Positions 2,783-61,606 of a stretch of DNA of 64,000 nt are shown piece by piece (within the stretch, counting starts at the first letter, position 1; the number at the start of each line of letters is the position of its first letter). The notes under the pieces are model-generated. The model saw nothing but the letters and a program-made list of their open reading frames with translations, was not told where the DNA came from and did not search any database. Location: the sequence record MT682711.1; one strand, 5' to 3'. The position numbers and the translations under genes are program-made. Source of the stretch: Escherichia phage vB_EcoM_FB.

Positions 2783-2785
2783 ATT

Positions 2786-2830
2786 CTCACCTCTTAGAGA
2801 ATCGTATCATACTTTTAATCAGTTGTAAAC
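2786..2830 (-). promoter_or_regulatory. early sigma70-type promoter-like element (GTTTAC -35, TACGAT -10)
   Basis: rc of 2825-2830 is GTTTAC, 18 nt spacer, TACGAT; sits just downstream of terminator hairpin. Confidence 0.4.
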
Positions 2831-6017: not shown

Positions 6018-6035
6018 TTTATTTTCCTCTCATTT

Positions 6036-6076
6036 GTTGATAGGGTAATCTTATCACTACCCTACCATATTGTATA
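6036..6076 (-). promoter_or_regulatory. early promoter-like element with TAAGAT -10 flanked by inverted repeat
   Basis: GTATAC ... TAAGAT ... TACCCTATCAAC; ggtagggta / taccctatc inverted repeat around the -10. Confidence 0.4.
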
Positions 6077-6090
6077 CTGTTTTTTAAACT

Positions 6091-6657: not shown

Positions 6658-6691
6658 AATTTTCTCTCTTGGTTAAAGGATTATTCTCCAT

Positions 6692-6728
6692 GAGAGCCAT
6701 TATAACATGGCTCTCGATAAAGTAAACT
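6692..6728 (-). promoter_or_regulatory. early promoter (GTTTAC -35, 17 nt, TATAAT -10) with the -10 inside an inverted repeat
   Basis: rc 6723-6728 GTTTAC; rc 6699-6704 TATAAT; gagagcc (6692-6698) / ggctctc (6709-6715). Confidence 0.55.
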
Positions 6729-7787: not shown

Positions 7788-7810
7788 TTTGTTCTCCTCA
7801 TGTTGATAGG

Positions 7811-7843
7811 GTAGATAATATCATGTCATGAGGAGAAGTAAAC
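7811..7843 (-). promoter_or_regulatory. early promoter (GTTTAC, TATTAT -10) with anti-SD in spacer
   Basis: rc 7838-7843 GTTTAC; rc 7815-7820 TATTAT; catgaggagaa (7827-7837) is the exact reverse complement of the SD region ttctcctcatg (7792-7802). Confidence 0.55.
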
Positions 7844-11144: not shown

Positions 11145-11174
11145 AATATTTTTCTCATCTTACGGACGATTAGC

Positions 11175-11213
11175 TGATAGGTCTATAGTATCATGTTGCT
11201 CGGTAAAGTAAAC
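11175..11213 (-). promoter_or_regulatory. early promoter (GTTTAC, TACTAT, AGACCTATCA leader)
   Basis: gtaaac at 11208-11213 and atagta at 11185-11190 on plus. Confidence 0.55.
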
Positions 11214-11897: not shown

Positions 11898-11910
11898 ATT
11901 ATTCTCCTCA

Positions 11911-11952
11911 GTTGATAGAAAGATAGTACCACAAGCTTCCTTGCCTGTAAAC
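11911..11952 (-). promoter_or_regulatory. early promoter (GTTTACA, TACTAT)
   Basis: gtaaac 11947-11952, atagta 11923-11928; leader CTTTCTATCAAC plus GAGGAGA SD. Confidence 0.5.
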
Positions 11953-12521: not shown

Positions 12522-12545
12522 ATGACCTCCAGTGATTTAGAGGTC

Positions 12546-12574
12546 ATTATAACATGAAGGGAGGAGGTGTAAAA
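12546..12574 (-). promoter_or_regulatory. early promoter with extended -10 (TGTTATAAT) abutting a hairpin that covers SD and start codon
   Basis: rc 12546-12551 TATAAT, GTTTTAC at 12568-12574; arms atgacctc (12522-12529) / gaggtcat (12540-12547). Confidence 0.5.
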
Positions 12575-13930: not shown

Positions 13931-14172
13931 AGGAAACCTCGTTTAAATTCAACTTTATCAATATCATCAGTCTCGTGACGGATTTCGGCATTAAATTCGA
14001 TAGAACCGTCTTCATGCATCATAAATGAATGGACAATAACTTCGGTATACCAAGGCGTATAGAAGTACTTTTTCAATACATGATTAGCGATAATTTCATC
14101 TAAAGTTTTATTTGGTTTAATCCAACGATTTAACATAGCATTCTCCTCTATAAGATAAGACCATCTTAACAT
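13927..14172 (-). CDS. hypothetical protein
   Basis: 81 aa ORF. Confidence 0.5.
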   Translation of the reverse strand: MLRWSYLIEENAMLNRWIKPNKTLDEIIANHVLKKYFYTPWYTEVIVHSFMMHEDGSIEFNAEIRHETDDIDKVEFKRGFL

Positions 14173-14198
14173 AACCTTCTTAGAAAGTAAACCCTTAA

Positions 14199-14505: not shown

Positions 14506-15027
14506 TTAATAACCTCGGTCCTGGCGAGCAAAGTTCTCGGCATTTTTCAGGTAATACAGTTTAAAGATTTCTTCAGCAGTCAGTCCAAGACCTTGGAACA
14601 TATTCAGAACAAAGTGCAGAATATCAATCATTTCGAATTTAATTTCGAGCTGGTCTTCAGGAGACAAATCGTTAATCAGGGTTTCACGACGTTCAGCATG
14701 TTGAGCTTTCCAAGGCTTCCATACAGCGCTCGCATCTTTTTCGCCATTGCTCATGCCACCAAGAGAAGTCAGAAGTTCGCGGAATTCATCATCAATATAA
14801 TCTTTCTGATTGCGCAACCAATCAACAACTTCACCTGCAGTAGCCAAGTCATCAGGATGACGGTTATATTCAGGTTTATCTTTAGCCAAACGGACTTGTA
14901 ATGATTTCTGCATATCAAGCATAACCTGCAGAGGGTCTTTATCTTCGTGAATCAGAGCATTAAAATAAGCTTCCTCAGCTTTATCAACACCAGCAATAAG
15001 TTGTGAGCATTCGTTAAAGTGTGCCAT
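14506..15027 (-). CDS. 56: dCTP pyrophosphatase (MazG-like)
   Basis: 173 aa; N-terminus MAHFNECSQLIAGVDKA resembles T4 gp56 as recalled; map position. Confidence 0.8.
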   Translation of the reverse strand: MAHFNECSQLIAGVDKAEEAYFNALIHEDKDPLQVMLDMQKSLQVRLAKDKPEYNRHPDDLATAGEVVDWLRNQKDYIDDEFRELLTSLGGMSNGEKDASAVWKPWKAQHAERRETLINDLSPEDQLEIKFEMIDILHFVLNMFQGLGLTAEEIFKLYYLKNAENFARQDRGY

Positions 15028-15118
15028 TATATTTTTTCCTTTTCAATTCATTAGTAAGTTAGATAATTATAAACTGTTAGATTAAAGCGAATAAATATTA
15101 TTTTAACAGGAGGATAAC

Positions 15119-15319
15119 ATGGGCAGTATTTTTTACCAAATCTGGAAATTGGCCGAAAAGAAAGACAAGAAAATGATGTTAGGTTTTCTTGCGCTAGACG
15201 TATTCCTTTGGAATCTTCTAGTAGTCCCTGTAGCCGCTAGCCAAGGGATAATTTTACCAGCGGTTACAATGGAACACGTATTAAGCATAATTGGATTCTT
15301 TAGCGGAGTTCCTGCCTAA
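15119..15319 (+). CDS. hypothetical small hydrophobic protein (plus strand)
   Basis: 66 aa; strong AGGAGG SD 7 nt upstream of ATG; fills the gap between convergent 56 and 61. Confidence 0.4.
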   Translation: MGSIFYQIWKLAEKKDKKMMLGFLALDVFLWNLLVVPVAASQGIILPAVTMEHVLSIIGFFSGVPA

Positions 15320-16344
15320 ATTTTAGAATATTTTGAAAGTCTCATTTTTGCCATTAAACCTTGGGCTATATTAGCTTTCATATATGCCAGTACATCATTT
15401 ATATCAGCTTTATCTTTCATAATCATATCATTTATATCTTTAGAAGGCCATGGAGCCTTGTCCCAGAATAGAACCCTTTCGCCAGCATCAACTAATCGTT
15501 GCATACGCTTAATTGTGTCAGGATGGCGGGGTTCATTGTCCATTACCCAGGCACGAGTTTCTTTACATGGAACCATAGCCAAGTCCAACGACCCGCCAGT
15601 AATTGCTATTGCATTCGGAACAAACAAAGAGTCAATAGGGCCTTCCATTACCCACACCAACTGACGTTCGTCAACTGTATCCATTCCATATATTTTTGTA
15701 GCTTGGTCATGAGCTTTTATTGTAATATATTTTTGTGGAGCATCTTTACGTAAGGCTCGACCCTGAAAACTTTCAATTTGTTTATTCTTATTGAAAATTG
15801 GAATAACCAAACGAGGCTCAGGCATTTCTTTAGAATAGGTCCCTGGATTGACAGAGTTCACCAATGCCGGCCATTCTTTAGTAAACCATAAGCGATTCCA
15901 TTTGTTTTCAGGAATGCAACGTAGTGTTACATATTTGATAATAGGATGGTCCTTTGGCATTCTATCCAGACGTTCACAGAAATTAAGCTTTTCGATGACA
16001 GGCATCTTGGCTTTAATCTTTTCTGATATCTCCACCTTAGGTGCAGCTTGTCTCCCGAACGATTGCTCTTTATGTTTCTCAAGAATATATTCTCGATATA
16101 AATCAGGCTCATATTCGTATAGATACTTCTTAATTCCTGCTGAATAGTCGCAGTTAAAACAGTGCAGCATTACAGAGCCGTCATTGGCTGGATAGGCCCA
16201 AAAACGAGCTTTGTTTTCATCTTTTAGGGAGTCGCCACATACACGACAACGGCAGTTTAATTTAAAATCACTACCGGTTACTTGTCTGAATTTAGGTTGG
16301 TAATTCAAGGCACGTACAGCAAATTCTCTATCGACATATGACAT
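15316..16344 (-). CDS. 61: DNA primase
   Basis: 342 aa (same as T4 gp61); N-terminal Cys-rich zinc-binding region; TOPRIM-like core. Confidence 0.85.
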   Translation of the reverse strand: MSYVDREFAVRALNYQPKFRQVTGSDFKLNCRCRVCGDSLKDENKARFWAYPANDGSVMLHCFNCDYSAGIKKYLYEYEPDLYREYILEKHKEQSFGRQAAPKVEISEKIKAKMPVIEKLNFCERLDRMPKDHPIIKYVTLRCIPENKWNRLWFTKEWPALVNSVNPGTYSKEMPEPRLVIPIFNKNKQIESFQGRALRKDAPQKYITIKAHDQATKIYGMDTVDERQLVWVMEGPIDSLFVPNAIAITGGSLDLAMVPCKETRAWVMDNEPRHPDTIKRMQRLVDAGERVLFWDKAPWPSKDINDMIMKDKADINDVLAYMKANIAQGLMAKMRLSKYSKI

Positions 16345-16382
16345 TATTTTTCCTTGGGCTCTAAATTAATAGAGCCATTATA

Positions 16383-16544
16383 TCATTCGTTTTCGGATTT
16401 TTCTTTACGCTTTTTAGATGGGATTTGTTCAGGCCCTTTGTTGACGACCGCGCCTGAGGTAGTTCCGGAGGCAATATTAGATGGGTTACCACCTGCATCG
16501 CCTGCGACCATATCTTCGTTCATAACTTCTTTAAAAGATTTCAT
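16383..16544 (-). CDS. hypothetical small protein
   Basis: 53 aa ORF translated by hand (MKSFKEVMNEDMVAGD...); CAGGAG SD. Confidence 0.4.
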   Translation of the reverse strand: MKSFKEVMNEDMVAGDAGGNPSNIASGTTSGAVVNKGPEQIPSKKRKEKSENE

Positions 16545-16557
16545 AGGCTCCTGGCCT

Positions 16558-16565
16558 TATTTATA
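16558..16565 (-). promoter_or_regulatory. late promoter-like TATAAATA
   Basis: rc of tatttata at 16558-16565. Confidence 0.4.
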
Positions 16566-16770
16566 TTACGAAAATAGCTTTATCACCATTCGCATCAGTG
16601 ACTTCATAGGTATCTTCATGATACAGTGGGATAATCCAAGTCACACCATCACCGGCAATAATATGGATAGCTTCTTGGTCCTTTGATACGATTTCATACT
16701 CTTCGAATAATTCGAATACAGAAATCTTAGAGCCCGTACACATTGCACTCATATTGTTCCCTTCTCTCAA
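16561..16770 (-). CDS. hypothetical protein
   Basis: 69 aa ORF. Confidence 0.45.
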   Translation of the reverse strand: MREGNNMSAMCTGSKISVFELFEEYEIVSKDQEAIHIIAGDGVTWIIPLYHEDTYEVTDANGDKAIFVI

Positions 16771-16948
16771 TCAGTTGGCGATGGGCCTTTTTAAGTTTAC
16801 GAAGCTGGCGCTTAGTCGGCCGTGCGACATAAGCTTGAGTAGTTACTCGTCCAAAAACACCATACTTAGGTGAAGGAGAATCGATAAAGACTTCCCACTG
16901 ACAAGAGTAACTATACACGGCTTTAGAGAATTGAGTTAAGACAAACAT
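16727..16948 (-). CDS. hypothetical protein
   Basis: 73 aa basic ORF. Confidence 0.45.
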   Translation of the reverse strand: MFVLTQFSKAVYSYSCQWEVFIDSPSPKYGVFGRVTTQAYVARPTKRQLRKLKKAHRQLIERREQYECNVYGL

Positions 16949-16949
16949 A

Positions 16950-17390
16950 TTAACCTCGATTCATAAAGGCATTAAAAATCTGGTCATCTATTGAATAAAC
17001 CGGAGCTTCCAGAATTTTCAACAGACTGTTTTTGATATACTTGCTAGGGATGTCCATATTAACGCGGTCGTTCAATTCGTTGTCTGGGAGGATGTCTTTA
17101 AATTCGAATCCATCAAACTCAACCTTGTCAGGAATACCTTCGGCGAAAAAATAAACCAATTGGTGCATTGTATTGCGAGAAAATAATTTAGACCTCACCG
17201 CAATAAGTTCTTGCCAATGGTTTAATTCTCTGTTAAGAAGTTTATGAGCCATTGTAATTCGATCATCGCTATCAACAAGAAAATAACCTAGGTATTGGTG
17301 GTCGTCGCTCCAAAACATCCTGTATGCTTGTGCATTTGGATTTTTACAACAAAGTTTTTTGATAACTAAATTTCTGTTAATCTTATTCAC
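16950..17390 (-). CDS. hypothetical protein
   Basis: 146 aa ORF. Confidence 0.55.
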   Translation of the reverse strand: MNKINRNLVIKKLCCKNPNAQAYRMFWSDDHQYLGYFLVDSDDRITMAHKLLNRELNHWQELIAVRSKLFSRNTMHQLVYFFAEGIPDKVEFDGFEFKDILPDNELNDRVNMDIPSKYIKNSLLKILEAPVYSIDDQIFNAFMNRG

Positions 17391-17676
17391 CTGTCACCTC
17401 TTTAACGATATTTTTGTTATCGAAATTGGCATCACAATACAAAACATAGTTATATTGCATAACACCACCTGAAGCTAATTGGTCTGACACTTCTTTAGCC
17501 ATATCAGGGCGGGCACGTTTAGTGATGTTCATGATATCAGCATAAATCTGATGTTCGACTGATTCTTGGTCTGCAGTCATAGACCATTCACAAAGGTCTT
17601 TATCCAATCCGGCAGTTACTGGAGCCGTGCCACATGATGCTACTGTAAGGATTGCTGCGATTAATAACTTTTTCAT
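17383..17676 (-). CDS. sp: Spackle-like periplasmic protein
   Basis: 97 aa with signal peptide (MKKLLIAAILTVASC); size and 61-41 interval position match T4 Sp. Confidence 0.55.
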   Translation of the reverse strand: MKKLLIAAILTVASCGTAPVTAGLDKDLCEWSMTADQESVEHQIYADIMNITKRARPDMAKEVSDQLASGGVMQYNYVLYCDANFDNKNIVKEVTGE

Positions 17677-17695
17677 TTTTAACTCCTCGTTAGTT

Positions 17696-17734
17696 GATAG
17701 GTCTATAGTATCACTACCATAGACCGTTGTAAAC
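17696..17734 (-). promoter_or_regulatory. early promoter (GTTTAC, TACTAT, AGACCTATCAAC)
   Basis: gtaaac 17729-17734, atagta 17705-17710. Confidence 0.55.
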
Positions 17735-17735
17735 T

Positions 17736-17975
17736 TTATTTTAACGAATCTTCCAAATAAATTTTACGGAATTTACGTTTTGTCTGACGAATCTGACGCT
17801 TAGTAGGCTTCACAGGAAAATCGAAGAACTCTACGTATTCTTGTTCATAATCGTTGTGGCCCACTGAAAGAACTAGTTCCCAGTTGTTTACGGTACGTTG
17901 GATAAACATATTATGCTTACCGAAAGATTTATTCCAAAAAGAGCTAGGAGTTGGTTTCATTAAGGTAATATTCAT
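17736..17975 (-). CDS. hypothetical protein
   Basis: 79 aa ORF. Confidence 0.5.
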   Translation of the reverse strand: MNITLMKPTPSSFWNKSFGKHNMFIQRTVNNWELVLSVGHNDYEQEYVEFFDFPVKPTKRQIRQTKRKFRKIYLEDSLK

Positions 17976-18116
17976 TTATTCCTCGCCTTCATGTTTATGA
18001 GCAATTTCTTCGAATTCGCTGTCACAGTCTAAACAGGTTGCGTTGTCCCAAGCATCAAATACTGCCTGGTCTTCACAGACCGAACAACCACATACTACAC
18101 ATTCAAATTCTTCCAT
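17976..18116 (-). CDS. small zinc-ribbon protein
   Basis: 46 aa ORF translated by hand (MEEFECVVCGCSVCED...CLDCD); butt-joined to both neighbours. Confidence 0.45.
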   Translation of the reverse strand: MEEFECVVCGCSVCEDQAVFDAWDNATCLDCDSEFEEIAHKHEGEE

Positions 18117-18311
18117 TTAGATTTCCTCAATACGGGCATCATGTTCATAAACTTCTACGTCGTCGACATACGCCTTAACCAAAATATTATTGACTTCAGC
18201 GAATTGGGTAGTCACCCACACGATATCGTTTTCACGCACTGAAGCTTCTTTGGTAGCGGTATCACCGTTGGCGAAATGGCCGACAAATTTTACTTTAATT
18301 GATTCAGACAT
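18117..18311 (-). CDS. dmd: Dmd antitoxin-like protein (anti-RnlA/LsoA)
   Basis: 64 aa; WVTTQFAEVNNILVKAYVDD resembles T4 Dmd as recalled; sits just downstream of 41 as in T4. Confidence 0.65.
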   Translation of the reverse strand: MSESIKVKFVGHFANGDTATKEASVRENDIVWVTTQFAEVNNILVKAYVDDVEVYEHDARIEEI

Positions 18312-18641
18312 TTAGATTTCCTCACAGAAGGCCCATTCAGCATGATAAACCGTAGCGCCTTTAGTATCATTTAAACAAACCACATCTACCGGAGCAATTA
18401 CACGATAAAGACGAGGTTCTCCTCCCACTGAACGAGCTGCACGTCCAGCATAAATCTTAGCCAAACCGATATCTTCAGTAAAGAACACACGATTTAGGTT
18501 TTTCTTACGACCGGTTTCAGACAGAACTCCTGTTTCCTCAGGAGGACAAAGCATATTACCGATATTAGCGACACTACAACTTCCATGGTAATACACTTTA
18601 TATTCTGCTTTACAGTCGATGGTTTTCATTTTGTTCTCCAA
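18312..18641 (-). CDS. hypothetical protein
   Basis: 109 aa ORF. Confidence 0.55.
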   Translation of the reverse strand: MENKMKTIDCKAEYKVYYHGSCSVANIGNMLCPPEETGVLSETGRKKNLNRVFFTEDIGLAKIYAGRAARSVGGEPRLYRVIAPVDVVCLNDTKGATVYHAEWAFCEEI

Positions 18642-18649
18642 GTTGATAG

Positions 18650-18682
18650 GTCTATAGTATCACGCCTACAGGAGATGTAAAC
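18650..18682 (-). promoter_or_regulatory. early promoter (GTTTAC, TACTAT)
   Basis: gtaaac 18677-18682, atagta 18654-18659. Confidence 0.55.
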
Positions 18683-18690
18683 CCTTAAAA

Positions 18691-18714
18691 ACAAAAAAGG
18701 AGCCGAAGCTCCTT
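18691..18714 (-). terminator. intrinsic terminator (UUCG hairpin plus U tract)
   Basis: aaggagc-cgaa-gctcctt at 18697-18714, A6 on plus at 18693-18698. Confidence 0.7.
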
Positions 18715-20152
18715 AAAATTTGATAGATGCTGCTAAATCGTCCAAATCACTTCTATTAACACGCGTCTGTCGATTGACCTCGGCCTGGCGATTCATCTCA
18801 CCTGTAGCCTCACGAACAGTGTTCACTGGGCCTGGGTTGGAATCATCTTCAACTTCGTACCAACGTTGATTTCCTTTCTTAACGCCAATCTTAAATTTGT
18901 TGTAGTAGCTCTTATCGCCATAACGAGATTTAAGCTGCTTAACCATCTGCATACCCATCTGAGCGAACTCTTCTGTCTCGACCACACCCAACATGAAGTC
19001 TGCAGTATGTGCAATACCAAAGGATTCAGCAATATCGGCCATATCGATTTCGGCTGCAACGTTCGCACCACGAGTAGTCTGGGCTGCAGTCCACAACAGT
19101 AATTTCTTCTCTACTGCAAGTCCACGTAGTTCTTCAGCAACCATCTTAATCAATCCGTAACTGTTTTCAGAGAAAACTTTCGTACGAGACGATGCACAGA
19201 TAGCCAAGTAGTCAACGATAACGACCTGTGGGACAAAGTTTTGTTTGAGCTTGTATTCGTTTAATAATGCACGGAATGTATCGGCATTAGCACCGCCAGT
19301 AGGATACTGTTTAATCTTTAAACGACCTAAAGTAGCAGTTGAACGCCATTTATCCATCTTAGCTTTATATTCAGGCCACGAGACGTGACCATCATCGATA
19401 TCATCCAGCGACACGTCCAGAAGGTTGGCATCGATACGCTTAGCACATACTTCCTCTGCCATCTCCATGGAGATATAAAGAACATCGTAACCAGATTGAA
19501 GATAATCAGCAGCCAATGAACAAAGACCAAGAGACTTACCTACGTTTGTTCCTGCCAACAATACGTTTTCAGTACCAAACTCAGCACCACCCTTGGTAAT
19601 CTTATTCAGAATATTAAGACGGAATGGAACCTTACGTGCTTTATCGGAATAACTTTTGAATCGTTCTTCATAGTCATCCATCCAGTCATGACCTAATTCA
19701 GAATCGAAACAAATCGATAATGCATCACGCATGATATCCGGAATAGCACCAATACCTGGAAGTTTTCTATTTTGTTGCTCAACCGGAAGGTCGGCATTAG
19801 TTTGGATTTCAATGATTTTTGAAGTTGCATTATACATCGCTGCTTTCTGAACGTATTTCTCCGTCTCTTTAACCAACCATTCTTGGTCTTCAGGTCCGGC
19901 ATTCAGTGAACTTAAAAGCTCTTTAGCGCCTTGGTGTTCAACTTCTGAAAGCGTACTGTTATCTAATGCAATGCTCAATGCGTTCTTAGAAGGCACTGCA
20001 TTATATTCATTGACATGTTTTTTAATTTCTTTGAAAAGGGTCTTTGCAGGACCCTGGTCAAAATAAGAATCATTCATATAAGGCCAGACCTTAGTGAAAT
20101 AATCACTATTGCCTAGCAGTTGAGCCAAAATAGTTTCTACCACTTCCACCAC
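18713..20152 (-). CDS. 41: replicative DNA helicase (DnaB family)
   Basis: 479 aa; Walker A GTNVGKS; RecA-like C-terminal domain; T4 position. Confidence 0.85.
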   Translation of the reverse strand: MVEVVETILAQLLGNSDYFTKVWPYMNDSYFDQGPAKTLFKEIKKHVNEYNAVPSKNALSIALDNSTLSEVEHQGAKELLSSLNAGPEDQEWLVKETEKYVQKAAMYNATSKIIEIQTNADLPVEQQNRKLPGIGAIPDIMRDALSICFDSELGHDWMDDYEERFKSYSDKARKVPFRLNILNKITKGGAEFGTENVLLAGTNVGKSLGLCSLAADYLQSGYDVLYISMEMAEEVCAKRIDANLLDVSLDDIDDGHVSWPEYKAKMDKWRSTATLGRLKIKQYPTGGANADTFRALLNEYKLKQNFVPQVVIVDYLAICASSRTKVFSENSYGLIKMVAEELRGLAVEKKLLLWTAAQTTRGANVAAEIDMADIAESFGIAHTADFMLGVVETEEFAQMGMQMVKQLKSRYGDKSYYNKFKIGVKKGNQRWYEVEDDSNPGPVNTVREATGEMNRQAEVNRQTRVNRSDLDDLAASIKF

Positions 20153-20466
20153 CTCTTAGATTTAATTTTATCCAGTTCTTCTTGTATTTGCATTGTAACA
20201 CATTTTTCTACATGAAGCGCCAGCTCTTCTTTTCGGTCTTCGGAAGGTGTTCCGAAATCAACCGACACTTTTCCATCTTTCTCAATAACAATATTCATCA
20301 CATAAACGATGTGAGCAGTGCCATCGGGTAAAGTAAGCATAATTTCCTGCTTAACCGAACCCATTGACTTACGGATTATATCTAACGATTTCTCATAATA
20401 ACGAGGGTCACTAGGACCCTCTTCGGTATCTTTAACAAAATTATCTAAATCAGATAAATCAGTCAT
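20137..20466 (-). CDS. hypothetical protein at the T4 gene 40 position
   Basis: 109 aa ORF between uvsX and 41. Confidence 0.5.
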   Translation of the reverse strand: MTDLSDLDNFVKDTEEGPSDPRYYEKSLDIIRKSMGSVKQEIMLTLPDGTAHIVYVMNIVIEKDGKVSVDFGTPSEDRKEELALHVEKCVTMQIQEELDKIKSKRWWKW

Positions 20467-21631
20467 CTAAATCCATCTCTTCTAAATCGTTTTCGATATC
20501 AGCGGCACTTTGGGTATTGCCACCTAATTTAACAGCAACGTTCTTAGAGACACGAGAGTTAATAAGGTCGTTAACCGCATCGTCCACTTCTTTAATAGAA
20601 TTAATTGCACCAAGCTTATACTTATTCTCGATTGCTTCACGGAACGGGGCATGTTTAAACAGCGGTCCCCAGAACTCAACACAATCAGTAGCTTTAGCAC
20701 GCCATGCTTTTTCTTCTTGAACCATTTCACCCGTGGTTTCGTCAAGGAATGCACGATTATACCAGCCAGCTTTAGGTTTCACGACAAAGCCAATATCAGT
20801 AGCCATTTCAAGCAATCCACTGAATGGATCAATACCACCTTCAAAGTTAACGGTGATAGGGAACGTTGATTTCTCTTTAACCGTACGAGATTTCTCAGCC
20901 TTCAGTGTGAAGTCATAACCAGTGAGCTCAGTACCATCTTTAACCTGACGTTTAGAGATAAAGAACACGGTAGAAGCAGAGTACAGAATACCAGTACCAC
21001 CACCCATAATCTCTTTAGGGTACATTCCACCAATTTCCATAGCAGTGTGGTTAATTGCTACACAAGGGATATCCTTGATGGTCAGATAAGGTGTTACGAT
21101 ACGGAACAGAGATTTCAGTGACTTAGCACGAGTCATATCACCTACAACTTTCTCGTTCAAAGCATCTTCGGTTTCTTTCTTAGAAGCAGTGTTACCAATG
21201 GAGTCGATAAAGATAATAACCTTTTCGCCACGAGTAATTTCTTCTAACTGGTTGGTCATATCAACTTTAAGCTGTTCGACTGACTGGATTGGTGTATGAA
21301 CCACACGTTCCAAATCAACACCCATCGAACGGAAATAAGATTCTGAAGCACCGAACTCAGAGTCATAGAACAAACAAATTGCGTCTGGATATTTCTTCAT
21401 ATATGCCGCAACCATGGTAAGTCCAAACAACGTTTTAAAGTGTTTAGATGGAGCAGCAAAGATTGTCAAACCTGATTGTAAGCCTGCATTCAACGCACCG
21501 CCTAATGCAATATTCAGCATAGGGATACGAGTAGGAACTTCGTCACGACCATTAAACAATTTAGATTTGGTCAGGTCGGCAGTCATTTTAGAAGTAGAAG
21601 CTTTAATCAAACGGGATTTTAAATCAGACAT
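20459..21631 (-). CDS. uvsX: UvsX recombinase (RecA-like)
   Basis: 390 aa; MSDLKSRLIKASTSK N-terminus and overall similarity to T4 UvsX. Confidence 0.9.
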   Translation of the reverse strand: MSDLKSRLIKASTSKMTADLTKSKLFNGRDEVPTRIPMLNIALGGALNAGLQSGLTIFAAPSKHFKTLFGLTMVAAYMKKYPDAICLFYDSEFGASESYFRSMGVDLERVVHTPIQSVEQLKVDMTNQLEEITRGEKVIIFIDSIGNTASKKETEDALNEKVVGDMTRAKSLKSLFRIVTPYLTIKDIPCVAINHTAMEIGGMYPKEIMGGGTGILYSASTVFFISKRQVKDGTELTGYDFTLKAEKSRTVKEKSTFPITVNFEGGIDPFSGLLEMATDIGFVVKPKAGWYNRAFLDETTGEMVQEEKAWRAKATDCVEFWGPLFKHAPFREAIENKYKLGAINSIKEVDDAVNDLINSRVSKNVAVKLGGNTQSAADIENDLEEMDLDD

Positions 21632-21644
21632 TATATTTTTCCAT

Positions 21645-21700
21645 AGGCATCATTATATTTTACTCACGTTTTAAGATAGGGTAATTATATCACTTCACAT
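21645..21700 (-). promoter_or_regulatory. promoter-like region (TATAAT, TACCCTATC leader)
   Basis: gtgaTATAATtaccctatc on minus; -35 imperfect. Confidence 0.3.
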
Positions 21701-21708
21701 TTACAGCG

Positions 21709-22602
21709 TTAAAGGACCACGTCCTCATAACTTGGCATTTCGTGCTCAGAATGGATATGGGCACCGAAATAAATGAATTCAGCCAGACCAGGATGGAATA
21801 CTAAACCGGGATTCTCATGATAAATGATATGTGGTCTTGATTTCAGAATCTGATAATATTCAACCTTACTCGGTTTGAATTTAATAATCTCTACATCAGG
21901 ACGATAGTCTTCGCGCTTAAATGAATCGTTCGGGTCGGTGATGTAAAGACGAGCACCTTCAGCCGCAGCTTGGTCTACAACTCTTTCGAATTGATAGCAT
22001 TTATCTGAGATACGGAACGGATGGAAAATACCATCAATTTTAATAGGCGCTAGACCTTCAGAGTAACGCTCAATTACTGCAGGATTAATTACCTTTTGGT
22101 CTACAAAAATCTTATCAGAGGACGCACCTCGTGACACCAGGACGTCTTTCTGGCATTGATTCAGGACTGTAGTATAAATCGAACGTTCAACTGAAGACAC
22201 GTCGATATCAATGAACTCATCGATATAATAACGAGGAACTTCAGGGTCCATTGTAATGTTAAAGTTGAATTGTACAGTCTGGGTACCATCATAACCTGTG
22301 ATATCGGTTATTAATCCTGAGCAGTCATAGTATTCGATTAACGAATCAACAACGAACTCATTTTCAGACCAAAAATGTTTACGGGTTTCATAAGCATTTT
22401 CTTTATACCAAAGCGGTACAAAATTCAGTTCAGGAAACAATTCAATACATTCTTTGATATCGCTCGAATTTCTAGGATAAGCCAGATAATCACCTGGGCG
22501 AGCACGGTTTAAATGGGGTTGAAAATTACCGTCCTTAAGGACGGCATATTCACCTGTTTCGTAACTACGCATACTGAAAATAGGAACGATAAACAGACTC
22601 AT
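21709..22602 (-). CDS. hypothetical protein at the beta-gt position; candidate DNA sugar transferase
   Basis: 297 aa with no resemblance to T4 beta-glucosyltransferase as recalled; function assigned by position only. Confidence 0.4.
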   Translation of the reverse strand: MSLFIVPIFSMRSYETGEYAVLKDGNFQPHLNRARPGDYLAYPRNSSDIKECIELFPELNFVPLWYKENAYETRKHFWSENEFVVDSLIEYYDCSGLITDITGYDGTQTVQFNFNITMDPEVPRYYIDEFIDIDVSSVERSIYTTVLNQCQKDVLVSRGASSDKIFVDQKVINPAVIERYSEGLAPIKIDGIFHPFRISDKCYQFERVVDQAAAEGARLYITDPNDSFKREDYRPDVEIIKFKPSKVEYYQILKSRPHIIYHENPGLVFHPGLAEFIYFGAHIHSEHEMPSYEDVVL

Positions 22603-23297
22603 TTCAGGAATCCTCGAACGTAGTCAAAATCACGTTCAAACACGTGTGCACTAACCATAGTATGGGAATACGTACCCAGACCAACACCACACTGTTCAGC
22701 AATAAAGGCCATCAGTTTACCCTGCAGATAGAAATCCAGCTGCATAACGATAGCACAGTTCTGTGAACGCATATGAGTGTGTGCATACAGACGTCCATCA
22801 CGAATATAATATGTTACCGAATCGGTACATGGATATTCTAGGGATTCGTCAGAATCAAGGAGGGCTTGGTCTTGTTCTTGGAGAATCTGGAACACAACTC
22901 TTCGCGAGTTAGGCTTTTCTTTAAGCTCTTTAAGTAGGGCTGGGAGTTGGGCCACAATTCGAGGTCCATAGAAAGTGTTGAAGTTTGCAGGCAATACGTC
23001 ACTTTTCGGCTTATCAATGAACTTAGCAACATTAGGGTATTCCTTAAATGCTTCGGCGGCGTCAGTACCACCAGAAATCATAAATTTCCAAAAGGATTCG
23101 GCATAATCATAGTTGATACGATTAATACGAGGGTCGGTGAATTTATAGGTGCTTGCATCCAGTACTTCTACCGAAGCAGAACCAATTTCATAACAACGGC
23201 CGATACGGGAATCAACTGCAAACTGTGGAGCTTCCAGGATTTCTTCGTTCATTTGCTTAAACGCATTTTCAAAACTAACAGCGGTAATGTGTTTCAT
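22599..23297 (-). CDS. 42: dCMP hydroxymethylase (thymidylate synthase family)
   Basis: 232 aa; catalytic-Cys region PCTDSVTYYIRDGRL...HMRSQN resembles the T4 gp42 active-site region as recalled. Confidence 0.7.
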   Translation of the reverse strand: MKHITAVSFENAFKQMNEEILEAPQFAVDSRIGRCYEIGSASVEVLDASTYKFTDPRINRINYDYAESFWKFMISGGTDAAEAFKEYPNVAKFIDKPKSDVLPANFNTFYGPRIVAQLPALLKELKEKPNSRRVVFQILQEQDQALLDSDESLEYPCTDSVTYYIRDGRLYAHTHMRSQNCAIVMQLDFYLQGKLMAFIAEQCGVGLGTYSHTMVSAHVFERDFDYVRGFLK

Positions 23298-26798: not shown

Positions 26799-26824
26799 TG
26801 TAATTTCCTCATGTAGTTGATAGG

Positions 26825-26858
26825 AAGGATACTACCACGTTCCTTGTGGTATGTAAAC
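26825..26858 (-). promoter_or_regulatory. early promoter (GTTTAC, TAGTAT)
   Basis: gtaaac 26853-26858; atacta 26829-26834; CCTATCAAC leader. Confidence 0.5.
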
Positions 26859-33023: not shown

Positions 33024-33218
33024 TTAATCAAAGTATTCATAAACGAACCAGGCAGGATTCCTGTTCGACATGATTCTATCATACTCTGACTTAAAAGCAT
33101 TTCGGAGATAATCTTCAGTAACAAGATGTTCGTCTCCAGAGAAGTTATTAACTAAAACATACCGCTTTAGTTCAGGAACGGCCAACAAATGCTGGCCTGT
33201 TATAAAATTAGAAGCCAT
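33024..33218 (-). CDS. hypothetical protein
   Basis: 64 aa ORF. Confidence 0.45.
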   Translation of the reverse strand: MASNFITGQHLLAVPELKRYVLVNNFSGDEHLVTEDYLRNAFKSEYDRIMSNRNPAWFVYEYFD

Positions 33219-33225
33219 ATAAATA
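33218..33225 (+). promoter_or_regulatory. late promoter TATAAATA on plus strand
   Basis: tataaata at 33218-33225, 37 nt upstream of the HNH gene ATG. Confidence 0.55.
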
Positions 33226-33261
33226 TCTTTATCGGTCGCTGTATCAAATAAGGATTTGATA

Positions 33262-33978
33262 ATGAATTATAAATCAATATACGAAAAGCTTATTCAACGA
33301 GCAGTTAATAGAAATTTAACTACCTATAAAGAACGTCATCACATTATACCACAATGTATGGGTGGAACGGATGACGCTTTAAACTTGGTAGACTTAACAC
33401 CTGAAGAACATTACTTGGCTCATCAGTTGTTAGTTAAAATCCATCCAGATAATGTATCACTAGTCTATGCGGCAAGAATGATGACAATTAGCTCACCAAA
33501 TGCTGATAGGTCTAAAAATAAATTATTTGGATGGCTTCGTCGTAAGAATTCAGAAGTCCAAAAGGATAAAGAATTCTCGGAAGAAACCAGAAAGAAAATG
33601 TCGATTTCTGCTTTAAAAAAGCCTAGAGTTACCTGTCCACACTGTGGTAAAACCGGTTTGGTAGGCAATATGAACAGATGGCATTTTGATAATTGTCCTA
33701 AAGGCCCTAATAAAGTGGTTCATACTATACCAAAAGAACAAAAAGATAAAATATCAAACACTTTTAAGAATAAAGTATTTGAATTGGTTAATTGCCAGTT
33801 TTGTGGTATAGAAGGTAAGAAGAGCGTTATAGTAACCCATCAATATTTTTGCAAATTAAACCCTAACCGTAAAAAGAAAGAGGACCCTAAAATAAAGTGT
33901 CCTCATTGCGATAAAGTAGGAATACCTGCCAATATGAAACGTTGGCATTTTGATAATTGCAAATTAAAGCCTCAATAA
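33262..33978 (+). mobile_element. free-standing HNH homing endonuclease gene with C-terminal zinc-ribbon repeats
   Basis: ERHHIIPQCMGG...NLV.L...EHYLAH HNH motif; three repeats of CPHC.K.G...NM.RWHFDNC; only plus-strand gene in the replication cluster, inserted between 46 and the rpbA-position gene. Confidence 0.7.
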
Positions 33979-33983
33979 GAGGC

Positions 33984-39506: not shown

Positions 39507-39563
39507 AATGATTAATCTTTAATTTAAATAATGAATCTATTATATACCAATTGGCTTAAAGCA

Positions 39564-40416: not shown

Positions 40417-40484
40417 AATAATTTCCTCAGTTTTAAAGTTATAATCCGTAGGACCATTATACTCTGGTCCCAAGAGTTTGTAAA

Positions 40485-40685
40485 CTATTTTTGACTCATT
40501 GCACCTTTCCAGCCTTCGTACATCATTGCGGCGGAAATTAACAAAGCGCCTGAACAACTTGAATATTTGTGATTCCAAAACCAGTTCAGAAAAACTTCGT
40601 CATCAATACCTTGGGCTATCATATTTTCAAAGAACTGACGACGAGCTTCAGCAATTCGCTGTGATAATTTAGATTCAGGATTCAT
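40485..40685 (-). CDS. hypothetical protein
   Basis: 66 aa ORF. Confidence 0.4.
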   Translation of the reverse strand: MNPESKLSQRIAEARRQFFENMIAQGIDDEVFLNWFWNHKYSSCSGALLISAAMMYEGWKGAMSQK

Positions 40686-40820: not shown

Positions 40821-41114
40821 TCAGCTGTAACGATAACACTCGTTTGATTTACGTTTTGCAACACGATGAGAAGTATTATAATCCAAATCATCCTCAACGT
40901 ATACATCTTTTTTCAACTGACGAACTTCTTTACGCAGTTGACGATTCATCTCATTCTTGACTTCTGAATCAACGCCACGCATACGCTTCCATTTGTCTGA
41001 ACGGAAGATATTTTCTTCAACTTGTTCCTGACTTACGCCGTCCGGTGCTTTACGACGTCCGGAATAATAAAAATCTTTTACAGACAATTCTTTACGACGA
41101 ATAGTTTTACCCAT
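40821..41114 (-). CDS. hypothetical basic protein
   Basis: 97 aa ORF. Confidence 0.5.
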   Translation of the reverse strand: MGKTIRRKELSVKDFYYSGRRKAPDGVSQEQVEENIFRSDKWKRMRGVDSEVKNEMNRQLRKEVRQLKKDVYVEDDLDYNTSHRVAKRKSNECYRYS

Positions 41115-41550: not shown

Positions 41551-41561
41551 AATGTTCTCCT

Positions 41562-41608
41562 CATGTGTTGATAGGATAGACTATAACACGTGAGGAGAGG
41601 AAGTAAAC
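41562..41608 (-). promoter_or_regulatory. early promoter (GTTTAC, TTATAG) with anti-SD in spacer
   Basis: gtaaac 41603-41608; cacgtgaggaga (41587-41598) complementary to SD region ttctcctcatgtg (41555-41567). Confidence 0.5.
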
Positions 41609-44028: not shown

Positions 44029-44068
44029 ACCCAAACTCTATATCGATTAATTCATTGTTTGAAGGTTC

Positions 44069-44098
44069 ATTATACTCTATTTCGGAATCGTTGTAAAC
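44069..44098 (-). promoter_or_regulatory. early promoter (GTTTAC, 18 nt, TATAAT)
   Basis: gtaaac 44093-44098; rc 44069-44074 TATAAT. Confidence 0.5.
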
Positions 44099-46423: not shown

Positions 46424-46450
46424 GATATTCTCCTCAGTAGATTTAAAAAG

Positions 46451-46480
46451 ATTATACTCCATCCATCCTTGGATGTAAAC
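46451..46480 (-). promoter_or_regulatory. early promoter (GTTTAC, TATAAT)
   Basis: gtaaac 46475-46480; rc 46451-46456 TATAAT. Confidence 0.55.
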
Positions 46481-48992: not shown

Positions 48993-49004
48993 GTTAACCT
49001 CCAG

Positions 49005-49047
49005 TAGTTGATAGGTCTATAGTATCATTCCTACTGGAGATGTAAAC
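49005..49047 (-). promoter_or_regulatory. early promoter (GTTTAC, TACTAT) with anti-SD in spacer
   Basis: gtaaac 49042-49047; ctactggaga (49031-49040) complementary to SD region cctccagtag (48998-49007). Confidence 0.55.
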
Positions 49048-49400: not shown

Positions 49401-50396
49401 TTATTTCAGAAGTGTAACTTCGGCAATTTCAGACCAATCATTAGAATCGGTAGCAATGAAATCAGCCAAATAGAGGGCGGTACGCAATGAAACATTACGC
49501 AAACGTGATACATTAGCCTTCATCCATGAGAGTGCCTGGTAAGTCTGAGCGTCAGTCAGACCACGTTTCTGCATCATATCTGTAGACAGAATAACATCTT
49601 CAACACGAACCATAATCTCTTCGTTAGAGTGAACGCCTAAGTCAAGATAAACGGAACGAGATACTAAAGCCTGAAGGTGTGGAGCAAGTTTAGTACCACG
49701 TTCTAATTCACGGTCAATATCAACGTTAGTGATGAATACGATGGTGCCTTCATACTCAAATTCTTTATCGATATTTTTATCATCAAGATAAGAACTTGAA
49801 GTGCTCCAGCATACCTTACGTTTCTCACCGGTGTCCAATGCCGCTTTCAGAAGGTTCAGGATATCCATATCAGAGAATACATCAACATCATCAATAAGAA
49901 GAACACTATTAGGGCCGCGGTTATTCCAAAGCTGCTCGTAAAGACCGATTCCACTAATCTTTCCGTTGATTGATTTATATTCGATAGTTTCATTTTCGTG
50001 GGCATTCTGTAATGCTTTATCCAATGAATATGTTTTACCAATACCTGCTGCACCAGAGATGATAAGGGAACGAATTTTACCATCGATGATTCCATTAGTC
50101 ATCATATTCATTACTTTAAAACGTTTGTTGATGCGGTGTTTCATTTCATCCTGGGATTCGGTTACGACTGCAGGGGTTTCAACACCTTCAGTCTCGATAT
50201 CAGATTTGAACACCCATACACCACGCTCTACGCCATCAATCTGAACAAAGACCTTACCATCGCCGAGGTGGGCTTCTGATTCATGAATTTTATTAGGGAA
50301 CCAGGTTTTACCTGAACTCATGAACGTACCAGAGATTTCATTACCGCGGTAGATGCCTTTGTTGATTTTGATAGTTAACATTTTATTATCCTTCAC
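49401..50396 (-). CDS. AAA-type ATPase
   Basis: 331 aa; Walker A GAAGIGKT, Walker B LLIDDVD. Confidence 0.6.
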   Translation of the reverse strand: MKDNKMLTIKINKGIYRGNEISGTFMSSGKTWFPNKIHESEAHLGDGKVFVQIDGVERGVWVFKSDIETEGVETPAVVTESQDEMKHRINKRFKVMNMMTNGIIDGKIRSLIISGAAGIGKTYSLDKALQNAHENETIEYKSINGKISGIGLYEQLWNNRGPNSVLLIDDVDVFSDMDILNLLKAALDTGEKRKVCWSTSSSYLDDKNIDKEFEYEGTIVFITNVDIDRELERGTKLAPHLQALVSRSVYLDLGVHSNEEIMVRVEDVILSTDMMQKRGLTDAQTYQALSWMKANVSRLRNVSLRTALYLADFIATDSNDWSEIAEVTLLK

Positions 50397-50411
50397 TCAT
50401 TTGTTTTGATA

Positions 50412-50445
50412 GGTCTATCTTAACACGTTTAATCAGGTTGTAAAC
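50412..50445 (-). promoter_or_regulatory. early promoter (GTTTAC, TTAAGAT, AGACCTATCAAAAC)
   Basis: gtaaac 50440-50445; rc 50417-50422 TAAGAT. Confidence 0.5.
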
Positions 50446-53706: not shown

Positions 53707-53725
53707 TCTGTTCTCCTCATTAGTT

Positions 53726-53763
53726 GATAGGTCTATAGTATCATGTTCCTAGAGGATGTAAAC
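53726..53763 (-). promoter_or_regulatory. early promoter (GTTTAC, TACTAT)
   Basis: gtaaac 53758-53763; atagta 53735-53740. Confidence 0.55.
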
Positions 53764-57884: not shown

Positions 57885-57891
57885 ACTATCC

Positions 57892-58350: not shown

Positions 58351-58365
58351 TTTGTAATCTCCTGT

Positions 58366-58407
58366 AGTTGATAGGTCTATAGTACCACGTCTACAGGAGA
58401 TGTAAAC
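58366..58407 (-). promoter_or_regulatory. early promoter (GTTTAC, TACTAT) with perfect 10-nt anti-SD in spacer
   Basis: gtaaac 58402-58407; ctacaggaga (58391-58400) is the reverse complement of tctcctgtag (58358-58367). Confidence 0.6.
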
Positions 58408-60387: not shown

Positions 60388-60430
60388 TGTTATTCCTTAA
60401 GTTGATAGAAGTATTCTATCACGGATTTAA

Positions 60431-60847
60431 TTAAGCGTAAATAGCCTTGCCATAATGTTTGTACCAGGTAGGACGCTGTGCAATTTTTTCATCCAAACGG
60501 GTCTGAGATATAGCAATAGAAGCTTCGTGTGGAGTATAGTCACCACGGAATTCCTGAGGAATGTCACTAATGTCCTGGACAGTAGTATCCTTGATATTAA
60601 AACCACGTTTTAAACATTCGGCTATAAGCTCAATTTGTCGCTTACGTAAAAATTCAAGCTTATCGTAAAAGAATGTAACATGGCCTGTGCCAAGGATAAA
60701 AGTAGGACTGATTTTGAAATCACGGACACGTTTACCATTAGCAACATGCTTACGAACTGCACCGAAAACACGTGGTAATTCACGATATTCAGCCATTAAG
60801 TGTTGGTCAGCCAATTCAGATACTAAGGTAAGGTTGATACGAGTCAT
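60431..60847 (-). CDS. denV: endonuclease V (pyrimidine dimer DNA glycosylase)
   Basis: 138 aa; [29 protein letters not shown] resembles T4 DenV as recalled. Confidence 0.85.
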
Positions 60848-60865
60848 TTTTAATCTCCTGTAGTT

Positions 60866-60903
60866 GATAGGTCTATAGTATCATGACTACAGGAGATGTA
60901 AAC
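60866..60903 (-). promoter_or_regulatory. early promoter (GTTTAC, TACTAT) with perfect 10-nt anti-SD in spacer
   Basis: gtaaac 60898-60903; atagta 60875-60880; ctacaggaga (60887-60896) vs tctcctgtag (60854-60863). Confidence 0.6.
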
Positions 60904-61524: not shown

Positions 61525-61573
61525 ACGGGTTCCTTAAAGGTAAATATTTTAATTGGTCTGTTCAAGTAACTGT

Positions 61574-61606
61574 AGATATACTATCACAATTCTAGGAGAT
61601 GTAAAC
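61574..61606 (-). promoter_or_regulatory. early promoter (GTTTAC, TAGTAT)
   Basis: gtaaac 61601-61606; atacta 61578-61583. Confidence 0.5.

Follow-up and report, generated by a model that had tools for sequence, protein, structure and literature searches.

What kind of element lies at positions 17696-17734 of the sequenced stretch of Escherichia phage vB_EcoM_FB (MT682711.1; 64,000 nucleotides, hereafter referred to as the window), and does the conservation that continues past its -10 element point to a function other than that of a promoter? An original prediction, made from the letters alone, had listed this site among 19 minus-strand copies of an early promoter cassette composed of GTTTAC, a 17- or 18-nt spacer, a -10 element and a conserved transcribed leader. 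We identified 22 such cassettes. The explanation that we consider probable as a whole is that they are early promoters of the T4 'Pe' class, that the leader is a part of the promoter, that cassettes have been copied between promoter sites and exchanged together with gene modules, and that in about 40% of them a hairpin is predicted to hide the Shine-Dalgarno sequence (SD) of the next gene on read-through RNA.

An 8-kb part of the window (positions 15000-23000) shares 98.4% identity with Escherichia phage QL01 and 94-98% with phages WG01, IME08 and JS98. By sequence, it belongs to a JS98/QL01-like T4-type phage (Dhakavirus, family Straboviridae). Positions 18-63993 align with the first 61 kb of QL01, with 76-99% identity per block, and represent the early region, from rIIA to the e/ipIII area. 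All but one of the annotated genes are located on the minus strand, and the cassettes lie on this coding strand, ahead of the genes.

Identification of the early promoter cassettes

The pattern GTTTAC-N17/18-TAnnnT was found 20 times in the window, 19 times on the minus strand, compared with 1.69 +/- 1.32 occurrences expected on both strands from dinucleotide shuffles. Three further cassettes, each with one mismatch in the -35 element, bring the total to 22, all on the minus strand (Table 1; cassettes are designated below by their higher coordinate). Every one of the 19 sites listed previously proved to be a GTTTAC-type element, and three cassettes are additions to that list, with -35 elements at 14192, 40485 and 60442, the last one reading ATTTAC. 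The consensus obtained by aligning the cassettes on the -10 element consists of an A-rich block, GTTTAC, a 17/18-nt spacer ending in cgTGa, TAcTAT and then agaCCTATCAAC. The A-rich block upstream of the -35 element is UP-like, with the consensus aaaaA located 27-31 nt before the -10 element, and a TG precedes the -10 element in 19 of the 22 cassettes, as in extended -10 (TGn) promoters. The 5' untranslated region (5'UTR) is 18-24 nt long in 16 cassettes and leads directly into a GGAG-type SD.

The cassettes are sense-oriented and located directly upstream of orthologues of T4 early genes (motB, motB.2, srd, modA, modB, mrh.2, sp, imm, regB, denV, ipIII and others), and T4 has promoters at 14 orthologous positions. 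The T4 early promoters have been described by Wilkens and Rueger and by Miller et al. (2003), as far as these are cited in Hinton (2010; PMC2988021), and early-promoter logos are available for five relatives (Nolan et al. 2006; PMC1524935). The comparison with T4 proposed originally was borne out: GTTTAC, the 17-18 nt spacer, the extended -10 element TG(A/G)TA(C/T)(A/T)AT (thus TGn and TAnnnT), the A-rich upstream sequence, the C-rich positions -3 to -1, the A at +1 and the same early genes are all shared. A difference is that 17-nt spacers are common here, whereas the T4 spacer is almost always 18 nt long. The cassettes are thus early promoters of a known kind, the T4 'Pe' class, as had been suggested, and we infer their promoter activity from these sequence features. 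Unmodified host sigma70 RNA polymerase would read them immediately after infection. For the early region of a JS98-type phage, the list provides a map of 22 predicted early transcription units. It is worth mentioning that the T4 records NC_000866 and AF158101 carry no annotated promoter features, and that T4 start sites determined by differential RNA sequencing (dRNA-seq) have been described (bioRxiv 10.1101/2024.04.04.588121).

The conserved sequence downstream of the -10 element

Exact copies of CCTATCAAC were found ten times on the minus strand, all of them in cassettes, against 0.53 expected on both strands. With at most one mismatch, the motif (C)CTATCAAC is present in 14 of the 22 cassettes (Table 1). 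The conserved transcribed leader of the original prediction therefore corresponds to a real motif, but its extent was overstated, since six of the listed sites (2786, 6692, 12546, 44069, 46451 and 61574) have a promoter without the motif, and the full 42-nt string is matched by only 6 copies.

The gap between the -10 element and CTATCAAC is 3-5 nt, mostly 4 nt, in every cassette that carries the motif, and the distance from the motif to the SD and the ATG is more variable. Moreover, 12 of the 13 minus-strand copies of CTATCAAC lie within cassettes, and the motif does not occur ahead of internal genes. The fixed phase with the -10 element and this confinement to cassettes indicate that the motif goes with the promoter and is no general feature of ribosome sites. 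On the assumption that transcription starts at the usual seventh base after the -10 element, +1 corresponds to the A in CCT-A-TCAAC. The motif would then cover approximately -2 to +6, with about half of its length upstream of the predicted start. The conservation past the -10 element is best read as the discriminator, the start site and the first ~6 transcribed bases of the promoter class, with no separate leader element. For annotation, this means that the 'leader' should not stand as an RNA element of its own.

A lack of the leader in related phages would have refuted the original prediction; the comparison came out in favour of conservation. A search with the 59-nt denV cassette found it at about 14 places per genome in Dhakavirus, at 4-6 places in the next-ranked coliphage group (HX01, JS09, p000v) and at 1-2 places in Tequatrovirus, in addition to a few places in phages of Yersinia, Enterobacter and Citrobacter; about 500 public genomes of Dhakavirus, Mosigvirus and Tequatrovirus match the cassette. 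A common theme, with no G from -4 to -1, T/A/T at -1/+1/+2 and A/C-rich sequence thereafter, can be observed in T4 and in four other T-even lineages. In T4, TACTAT-ACAACTATCAAC is present at five promoters, AGACCTATCAAC at PdenV and TACCCTATCAAC ahead of trna.4. The other lineages, compared at the 20-kb regB loci of Klebsiella Potts1-like, Enterobacter CC31, Salmonella STML-198 and Klebsiella KPV15 phages, show lineage-specific variants at the position of the motif, e.g. CTTACACAAAC and CCTCATCAAAAC. In a pool of 80 predicted promoters from six lineages, G accounts for 0-1% at positions -4 to -1 and for at most 12% up to +8, while the most frequent bases are C at -3/-2 (0.6), T at -1 (0.65), A at +1 (0.75) and T at +2 (0.61). 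The C at -3 to -1 was already noted for early promoters of RB69, RB49 and 44RR (Nolan et al. 2006, PMC1524935), and 'additional regions of consensus' have been mentioned for T4 early promoters (Hinton 2010, PMC2988021). The 'leader' of the window is thus a sharper, lineage-specific version of this family-wide consensus. The promoter class would then be characterized by a G-free, C/T-rich stretch at -4 to -1 with T at -1, by A at +1 and T at +2, and by a short, A/C-rich 5'UTR running into a GGAG SD. The claim that the conservation of the leader requires a function beyond RNA polymerase is not needed, since the motif is in phase with the -10 element and follows this consensus.

Very strong phage promoters that are read by the host polymerase, such as T5 N25, T7 A1 and lambda PL, start with A-U and carry information downstream of +1. 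Effects of the initial transcribed sequence at these promoters were reportedly found by Kammerer et al. in 1986 and in later work on promoter escape. Lambda PL starts with AUCAGC and T7 A1 with AUCGAG, compared with AUCAAC here, a resemblance that does not in itself link CTATCAAC to promoter escape.

Two points weigh against the assignment of the whole motif to the promoter. The start was placed by the above rule only, and positions +3 to +6 (CAAC) have no documented contact with the polymerase, so that their conservation could equally result from the copying of cassettes or from a role in RNA. With respect to the latter, we regard it as unlikely that the conserved bases act as a common 5' end (AUCAAC followed by A/C-rich sequence) serving as a ribosome standby site, a translation enhancer or a determinant of stability or processing. 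In all six lineages, the leader does contain little G and is rich in A and C as far as the SD, the 5'UTR length is uniform in most cassettes, and the SDs fit the RegB/S1 target type (GGAG with an A-rich tail; PMC1702504), which implies that early leaders are known to carry signals at the RNA level. However, such a role is difficult to reconcile with a motif that keeps its phase with the -10 element instead of the SD or ATG, that begins upstream of the predicted start, and that is absent before internal genes with equally good SDs. In addition, an Rfam scan of the whole window gave no family match, and RegB needs sequence located 3', not 5', of GGAG (PMC1702504). As only this 3' sequence matters, the leader was also ruled out as a part of the RegB target.

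There is, in our opinion, only a very slim chance that a phage protein binds the motif, such as a factor that shuts off early promoters a few minutes after infection. A repressor bound between -2 and +6 would be in a good position to act, and how T4 shuts off its early promoters is described as not fully understood (PMC3014915; PMC2988021); but the motif is missing from 8 of the 22 early promoters here and from most of those in T4, the other lineages differ at this position, and no candidate protein was found. No evidence was obtained for the leader as a processing site or as a protein-binding site, both of which had been proposed. Two more candidates were considered and rejected. An NAD-capping motif would favour purines at -2/-1, where C-T is present here, and a second -10-like hexamer (AACTAT/ACCTAT) at about -4 to +2 would lie too far upstream of known pause elements to act as a sigma-dependent pause signal.

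Inverted repeats embedded in the promoters

Nine of the 22 cassettes contain an inverted repeat whose 5' arm is located upstream of the predicted start and whose 3' arm lies over the leader or the SD. The spacers of the cassettes 60903, 58407, 49047, 41608 and 7843 begin with 11-13 nt that form the reverse complement of the SD region (for example ATCTCCTGTAG/CTACAGGAGAT), which places the -10 element and the motif in the loop, while in 6727, 6077, 40485 and 17734 a shorter helix straddles the -10 element. Twelve cassettes were folded, and these nine gave energies between -13.7 and -21.1 kcal/mol (z between -2.5 and -6.2). Among 107 predicted promoters (those of the window, of T4 and of six other loci), a spacer-to-downstream complementarity with z < -3 was observed in 33, compared with 10 of 540 random control positions (Fisher's test, p = 8e-20).

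The arm sequences also covary, both between genes and between genera. Beside a constant TCTCC/GGAGA core, the variants TGTAG/CTACA, AGTAG/CTACT, TCATG/CATGA, GTTTG/CAAAC and TCTTTATG/CATAAAGA can be observed. In nine arm pairs extracted by hand, 7 of 12 helix pairs change on both sides, and 93.5% of the cells are paired, as opposed to 74% in shuffles; this count tells against the reading to the extent that it is biased, the rows having been chosen for having hairpins. At the regB and denV promoters of six lineages, the helix is kept in each lineage with different arm sequences. Three architectures exist at denV, which differ in whether the 5' arm is formed by the spacer, by the -10 element plus discriminator, or by the discriminator alone. 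In all six lineages, the sequence that pairs with the SD in the regB and denV variants precedes the predicted start. At the modB promoter (12522-12574) and at 46424-46480, the predicted partner of the SD is likewise the discriminator or the -10 element plus discriminator (GACCTC...GGAGGTC), as at denV in Klebsiella/CC31-like phages.

The original prediction had placed the -10 element in the loop of an inverted repeat at three sites. This is correct for 6692-6715 and 6036-6076 (the motB and cef promoters in Table 1), but not for 16345-16383, where TATAAT is located 5' of the hairpin. The latter minus-strand site precedes gene 61 (primase) and consists of TATAAT (16382-16377), a hairpin GGCTCTA/TAGAGCC and an SD, without GTTTAC; it is a candidate middle-type promoter whose 5' end is structured.

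Another conceivable origin of the motif is as the 3' hairpin strand opposite the extended -10 element (TG(A/G)TA:TATCA; GTGATA:TATCAAC). Here the polymerase would constrain one strand, and this fixed partner would in turn fix the leader. In the predicted folds of 60903, 49047, 7843 and 53763, an inner helix UGAUA:UAUCA is indeed stacked on the outer helix between spacer and SD, and CTATCAAC mostly accompanies TG(A/G)-TACTAT promoters, both here and in T4. We nevertheless consider this improbable. Five base pairs over a 9-nt loop are unstable alone, and 6-7 cassettes with CTATCAAC (26858, 11952, 60442, 11213 and 50445; weakly 18682 and 53763) have no stable outer helix. Moreover, where the spacer pairs with the leader (6077; T4 73939), the spacer varies and the leader is fixed, which implies that the leader is constrained for another reason.

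It also appears very unlikely that the repeats act in DNA, where extrusion of a hairpin or cruciform would expose the -10 element in single-stranded form and thus aid or block the open complex, or would label a site of recombination. The early promoters of phage N4 do function as hairpins in the DNA, and some stems combine a long helix without mismatches with a small loop that has the -10 element at its centre (14 bp with an 8-nt loop in T4 PipII; 9 bp with a 6-nt loop in 6727). The SD-type repeats, on the other hand, have loops of 20-25 nt, from which extrusion out of a duplex would be very costly, their arms are not centred on a fixed promoter position, and host sigma70 polymerase needs the spacer as duplex DNA. 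Additionally, all nine internal mismatches are transitions, 7 of them G.T on the sense strand, which is the direction expected for RNA.

Table 1. Early promoter cassettes of the window, with their predicted folds and SD accessibilities.
Downstream gene or feature	Coordinates	Strand	Motif CTATCAAC	Leader	Predicted inverted repeat	Fold, kcal/mol (z)	SD unpaired, own; read-through	Remarks
denV	60848..60903	-	yes	CCTATCAAC	spacer ATCTCCTGTAGT pairs with SD-containing ACTACAGGAGAT	-20.7 (-6.2)	0.34; 0.00	89% identical to T4 PdenV
regB	58351..58407	-	yes	CCTATCAAC	arms as in denV cassette	-18.3 (-3.8)		91% identical to denV cassette, only 68% to T4 PregB
nrdC.8 orthologue	48993..49047	-	yes		ATCTCCAGTAG/CTACTGGAGGT, compensatory T:A to A:T change	-19.3 (-4.3)		T4 PnrdC.8 instead pairs GTTCCTCTGT with ACGGAGGAAC
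60-aa ORF	41551..41608	-	yes	CCTATCAAC	spacer (C)TCTCCTCACGTGT pairs with ACACATGAGGAGA	-21.1 (-6.1)	0.67; 0.00	
motB.2	7788..7843	-	yes	CCTATCAAC	TTCTCCTCATG/CATGAGGAGAA	-19.4 (-5.4)	0.34; 0.00	
motB	6658..6727	-	no		hairpin GAGAGCCAT/ATGGCTCTC, loop holds most of -10	-20.4 (-5.6)		arms GAGAGCC/GGCTCTC here, GGGACC/GGTCCC at same place in T4 PmotB (covariation)
cef, -35 GTATAC	6018..6077	-	yes	CCTATCAAC	hairpin TGGTAGGGTA/TACCCTATCA straddles -10	-16.9 (-4.4)		
55.2 orthologue	40417..40485	-	no		hairpin GGGACC/GGTCC straddles -10	-13.7 (-2.5)		without TG; -35, spacer and -10 identical to T4 PmotB
sp (spackle)	17677..17734	-	yes	CCTATCAAC	spacer GGTCTATGGTA pairs with TACTATAGACC (-10 plus discriminator)	-17.5 (-3.7)		copy at 17696-17734
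ORF upstream of dmd	18630..18682	-	yes	CCTATCAAC	weak TCTCC/GGAGA pairing	(-0.8)		UUCG terminator directly upstream
78-aa ORF	53707..53763	-	yes	CCTATCAAC	weak TCCTC/GAGGA pairing	(-0.6)		intrinsic terminator 53776-53801 directly upstream
imm	26799..26858	-	yes	CCTATCAAC	none significant	(-1.3)		
modA	11898..11952	-	yes	TCTATCAAC	none			
srd	11145..11213	-	yes	CCTATCAGC	none			34-nt 5'UTR
nrdC.10 orthologue	50382..50445	-	yes	CCTATCAAA				terminator upstream at 50470-50487
small internal-head-protein gene, -35 ATTTAC	60388..60442	-	yes	TCTATCAAC				absent from original list
ipIII	61525..61606	-	no					47-nt leader; left end of module 60914-61606
modB, -35 TTTTAC	12522..12574	-	no		discriminator GACCTC pairs with SD GGAGGTC		0.48; 0.00	
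mrh.2	14137..14192	-	no					UUCG terminator directly upstream; orthologue of T4 15288, 77% identity; absent from original list
nrdC.3/4-like gene	46424..46480	-	no				0.62; 0.02	TATAAT -10 without TG
GTTTAC-N18-TATAAT element within coding sequence	44063..44098	-	no					T4 counterpart inside 49.1, upstream of pin
107-aa ORF upstream of rIIA.1	2783..2830	-	no					UUCG terminator ends 5 nt before -35
Motif, (C)CTATCAAC with at most one mismatch. Own, predicted for RNA starting at the cassette; read-through, predicted for RNA including upstream sequence. ORF, open reading frame.

Predicted accessibility of the Shine-Dalgarno sequence

A transcript started at such a cassette would lack the 5' arm and would present an open ribosome site, whereas a read-through transcript from upstream would carry both arms, and its ribosome site would be folded away. 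In agreement with this, the predicted probability that the SD core of the window cassettes is unpaired is 0.46 for RNA starting at the cassette and 0.23 when 90 nt of upstream sequence are included (p = 7e-4). The predicted read-through value is as low as 0.00-0.02 in seven cassettes (60903, 58407, 49047, 46480, 41608, 12574 and 7843). Control genes without a promoter changed from 0.44 to 0.36 after the same treatment. In each of three separate sets (window, T4, other lineages), the drop in accessibility exceeds that at control genes, 0.17-0.21 versus 0.06-0.09 (p 0.017-0.033). About 40% of the cassettes are thus predicted to lie in hairpins that hide the ribosome site of the next gene, on read-through RNA only.

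This arrangement resembles the hairpins that hide the ribosome-binding sites of the T4 genes e, soc, 49 and I-TevI (Uzan and Miller 2010; PMC3014915), in which a helix likewise contains the SD or AUG and has its 5' strand ahead of the proximal start, and only the RNA from the proximal promoter is predicted to be translatable. In those genes, however, a late (or middle) internal promoter makes the gene late-only, whereas the promoter is early here, and translation would follow early-promoter activity. We tentatively propose, as a possibility that we hold to be short of probable, that about a third of the T-even early promoters, those of T4 included, are 'origin-of-transcript gates', in which the untranscribed spacer or discriminator is complementary to the leader or SD of its own gene. 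Translation and exposure to RegB would then occur only on RNA from the gene's own promoter, the gene would remain silent on early, middle or late read-through from upstream, and the cassettes would double as portable homology for module exchange.

If true, this would be the early-gene mirror image of the late-only gate of e and soc, and would account for the early-only expression of genes such as regB and denV, which are located downstream of heavily transcribed units. Spacers, which are usually treated as free sequence, would here be selected to pair with the downstream ribosome site. Protein output could moreover depend on where the transcript starts, which would have a bearing on early-gene switch-off, a process described as incompletely understood in the reviews cited above. 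The same design, with predicted promoter-embedded SD pairing, is found in T4 at PdenV, PregB, PnrdC.8 and PdexA, which makes the idea cheap and easy to test there. In a literature search we encountered no earlier account of the early-promoter consensus of JS98, nor any of early promoters whose sequence pairs with the SD; subscription papers (e.g. Zuber 2007, on JS98) were outside its scope, and may contain a prior description.

Several results speak against such gating or limit its reach. Because 13 of the 22 cassettes have no significant hairpin, a gate is not a general requirement, and the effect on accessibility is moderate and purely predicted. The strand-specific wobble test gave 7 G.T against 2 A.C (p = 0.18, with some rows not independent); as this asymmetry is not significant, a structure at the RNA level over one at the DNA level is not proven. 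Hairpins are less frequent at promoters preceded by a terminator than at the others (3 of 19 versus 29 of 88, all lineages), which is the expected direction, but the difference is not significant (p = 0.17).

The promoter-embedded stem-loops might instead serve as attenuators or terminators for upstream transcripts, as proposed for the promoter-early stem-loops (PeSLs) of RB49 and phi1, and the cassette would then be a stop-and-restart signal. We regard this as rather unlikely for the set as a whole. One PeSL stem-loop reduced lacZ expression as much as rrnB T1 did (Arbiol et al. 2010; PMC2839356), and the SD-type hairpins are followed by a stretch of A and U only (UUAAAAAUG), which would form a weak RNA:DNA hybrid. 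But none of the nine hairpins is followed by a U-run, their tails being A-rich, so that they lack the combination of G+C-rich hairpin and U-run of an intrinsic terminator; the genuine terminators are separate elements located upstream of five other cassettes. Furthermore, the denV and regB architectures preserve the pairing of the SD with a segment before the start, and not a hairpin-plus-tail geometry. The hairpins straddling the -10 element (motB, cef) fit attenuation and gating equally well, and each idea may hold for a subset.

The separate terminators are UUCG-tetraloop intrinsic terminators (GGnnCC-TTCG-GGnnCC followed by a T-run), which end 5-20 nt before the -35 elements of 2830, 14192, 18682, 50445 and 53763 on the minus strand. 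Terminator and cassette seem to be forming a stop-then-restart unit. None of these five cassettes has a strong promoter-embedded hairpin.

Cassette homogenisation and module boundaries

The cassettes of regB, denV, the ORF upstream of dmd, nrdC.8, sp and the 78-aa ORF are 71-91% identical to one another over 56 nt (from the spacer to about +25), with 82-91% identity to the best partner in each case. Five of these six have T4 orthologues, to which four are 54-68% identical and denV 89%. As identity is higher within the genome than to the T4 orthologues, one cassette type appears to have spread, or to have been converted, within the lineage; the uniformity of this phage (AGACCTATCAAC) would be due to the copying or conversion of a PdenV-type cassette into several other promoter sites. 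T4 promoters on the minus strand of NC_000866 with -35 elements at 27080, 55384 and 70696 have a common block of ~75 nt, consisting of TTTCACAAAAC(T/G), GTTTAC and TGGTACTATACAACTATCAAC, up to CTGATAC(G/A)G, and those at 27080 and 55384 are identical on to ATTTGGAGAAT. From this block it follows that T4 has its own homogenised cassette family, with a longer leader.

Module boundaries were analyzed with QL01 and five further Dhakavirus contigs. The block formed by cassette 61606 and ipIII (60914-61606) is present in three arrangements among these genomes. In the window and in QL01 it separates an upstream ORF from denV, in contig L009 it is located on the other side of that ORF, and in contig L008 it is missing, with GTTTAC(T)TCTCCT as the exact point at which the upstream ORF meets the denV cassette; the junctions are at GTTTAC(A/T)TCTCCT. 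In two contigs (L007 and L018) the denV cassette is swapped for another one, with the break at the denV ATG, and another (L006) has a moved ip gene with no cassette in front. Overall, 6 of 38 break-point clusters fall in cassette windows, where 4.2% would be expected at random positions (p = 0.005).

The cassettes would accordingly serve as short homologies for the exchange of gene modules, like the PeSLs. This reading is weakened when gene junctions are taken as the null (6 of 14 versus 7 of 32, p = 0.065). Most break points between related genomes lie away from cassettes, and none of the ~10 insertions or deletions between the window and QL01 ends in one; the signal emerged only from the five further contigs. 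PeSL-like module behaviour accounts for only a minority of the genome differences here.

Like the PeSLs of RB49 and phi1 (Arbiol et al. 2010, PMC2839356), the cassettes are repeated, intergenic, AT-rich stretches with a sigma70 promoter, a stem-loop over the spacer and -10 element, an SD and an ATG, and some of them are located at insertion, deletion or replacement junctions between close relatives. PeSL-like sequences in JS98 were already mentioned in that work. They differ in that a stable stem-loop at the promoter is present in 9 of the 22 cassettes (z <= -2.5) and not in the other 13, that GGGG...CCCC stems are absent here, the commonest type having the SD as its 3' arm and the -10 element and leader in the loop, and that only the above minority of genome differences end in cassettes. 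The basic classification is unchanged, as known T4-type early promoters with PeSL-like properties. Module exchange at short homologies provided by near-identical promoter cassettes was first described for the RB49 group, and may extend beyond it. The suspicion that the cassettes have features beyond polymerase binding was justified in part: the features found are the predicted pairing of spacer with leader or SD and a possible role in recombination or at module boundaries, and not the ones proposed.

Other observations in the window

Further replacements or insertions relative to QL01 were found at 33208-34144, 38818-39556, 42557-43649 and 63214-63539, and their ends are not at cassettes. At QL01 36409-37026 there is an HNH endonuclease gene where the window has only 158 bp. 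Directly after regB, a 244-aa ORF (57150-57884, minus strand) matches PHROG 655, 'homing endonuclease' (E 3e-36), and contains an HNH-like motif. Neither QL01 nor any of five other Dhakavirus contigs contains the surrounding block (57070-57896), which looks like a free-standing homing endonuclease insertion specific to the window.

Finally, three promoter-like elements of the type GTTTAC/GTATAC/TTTTAC-N18-TATAAT/TATAGT are located within coding sequence on the minus strand (44063-44098, 40875-40904 and 36369-36398). They have counterparts at the orthologous T4 positions 47452, 41261 and 35698, and may represent either internal promoters or protein-coding conservation.

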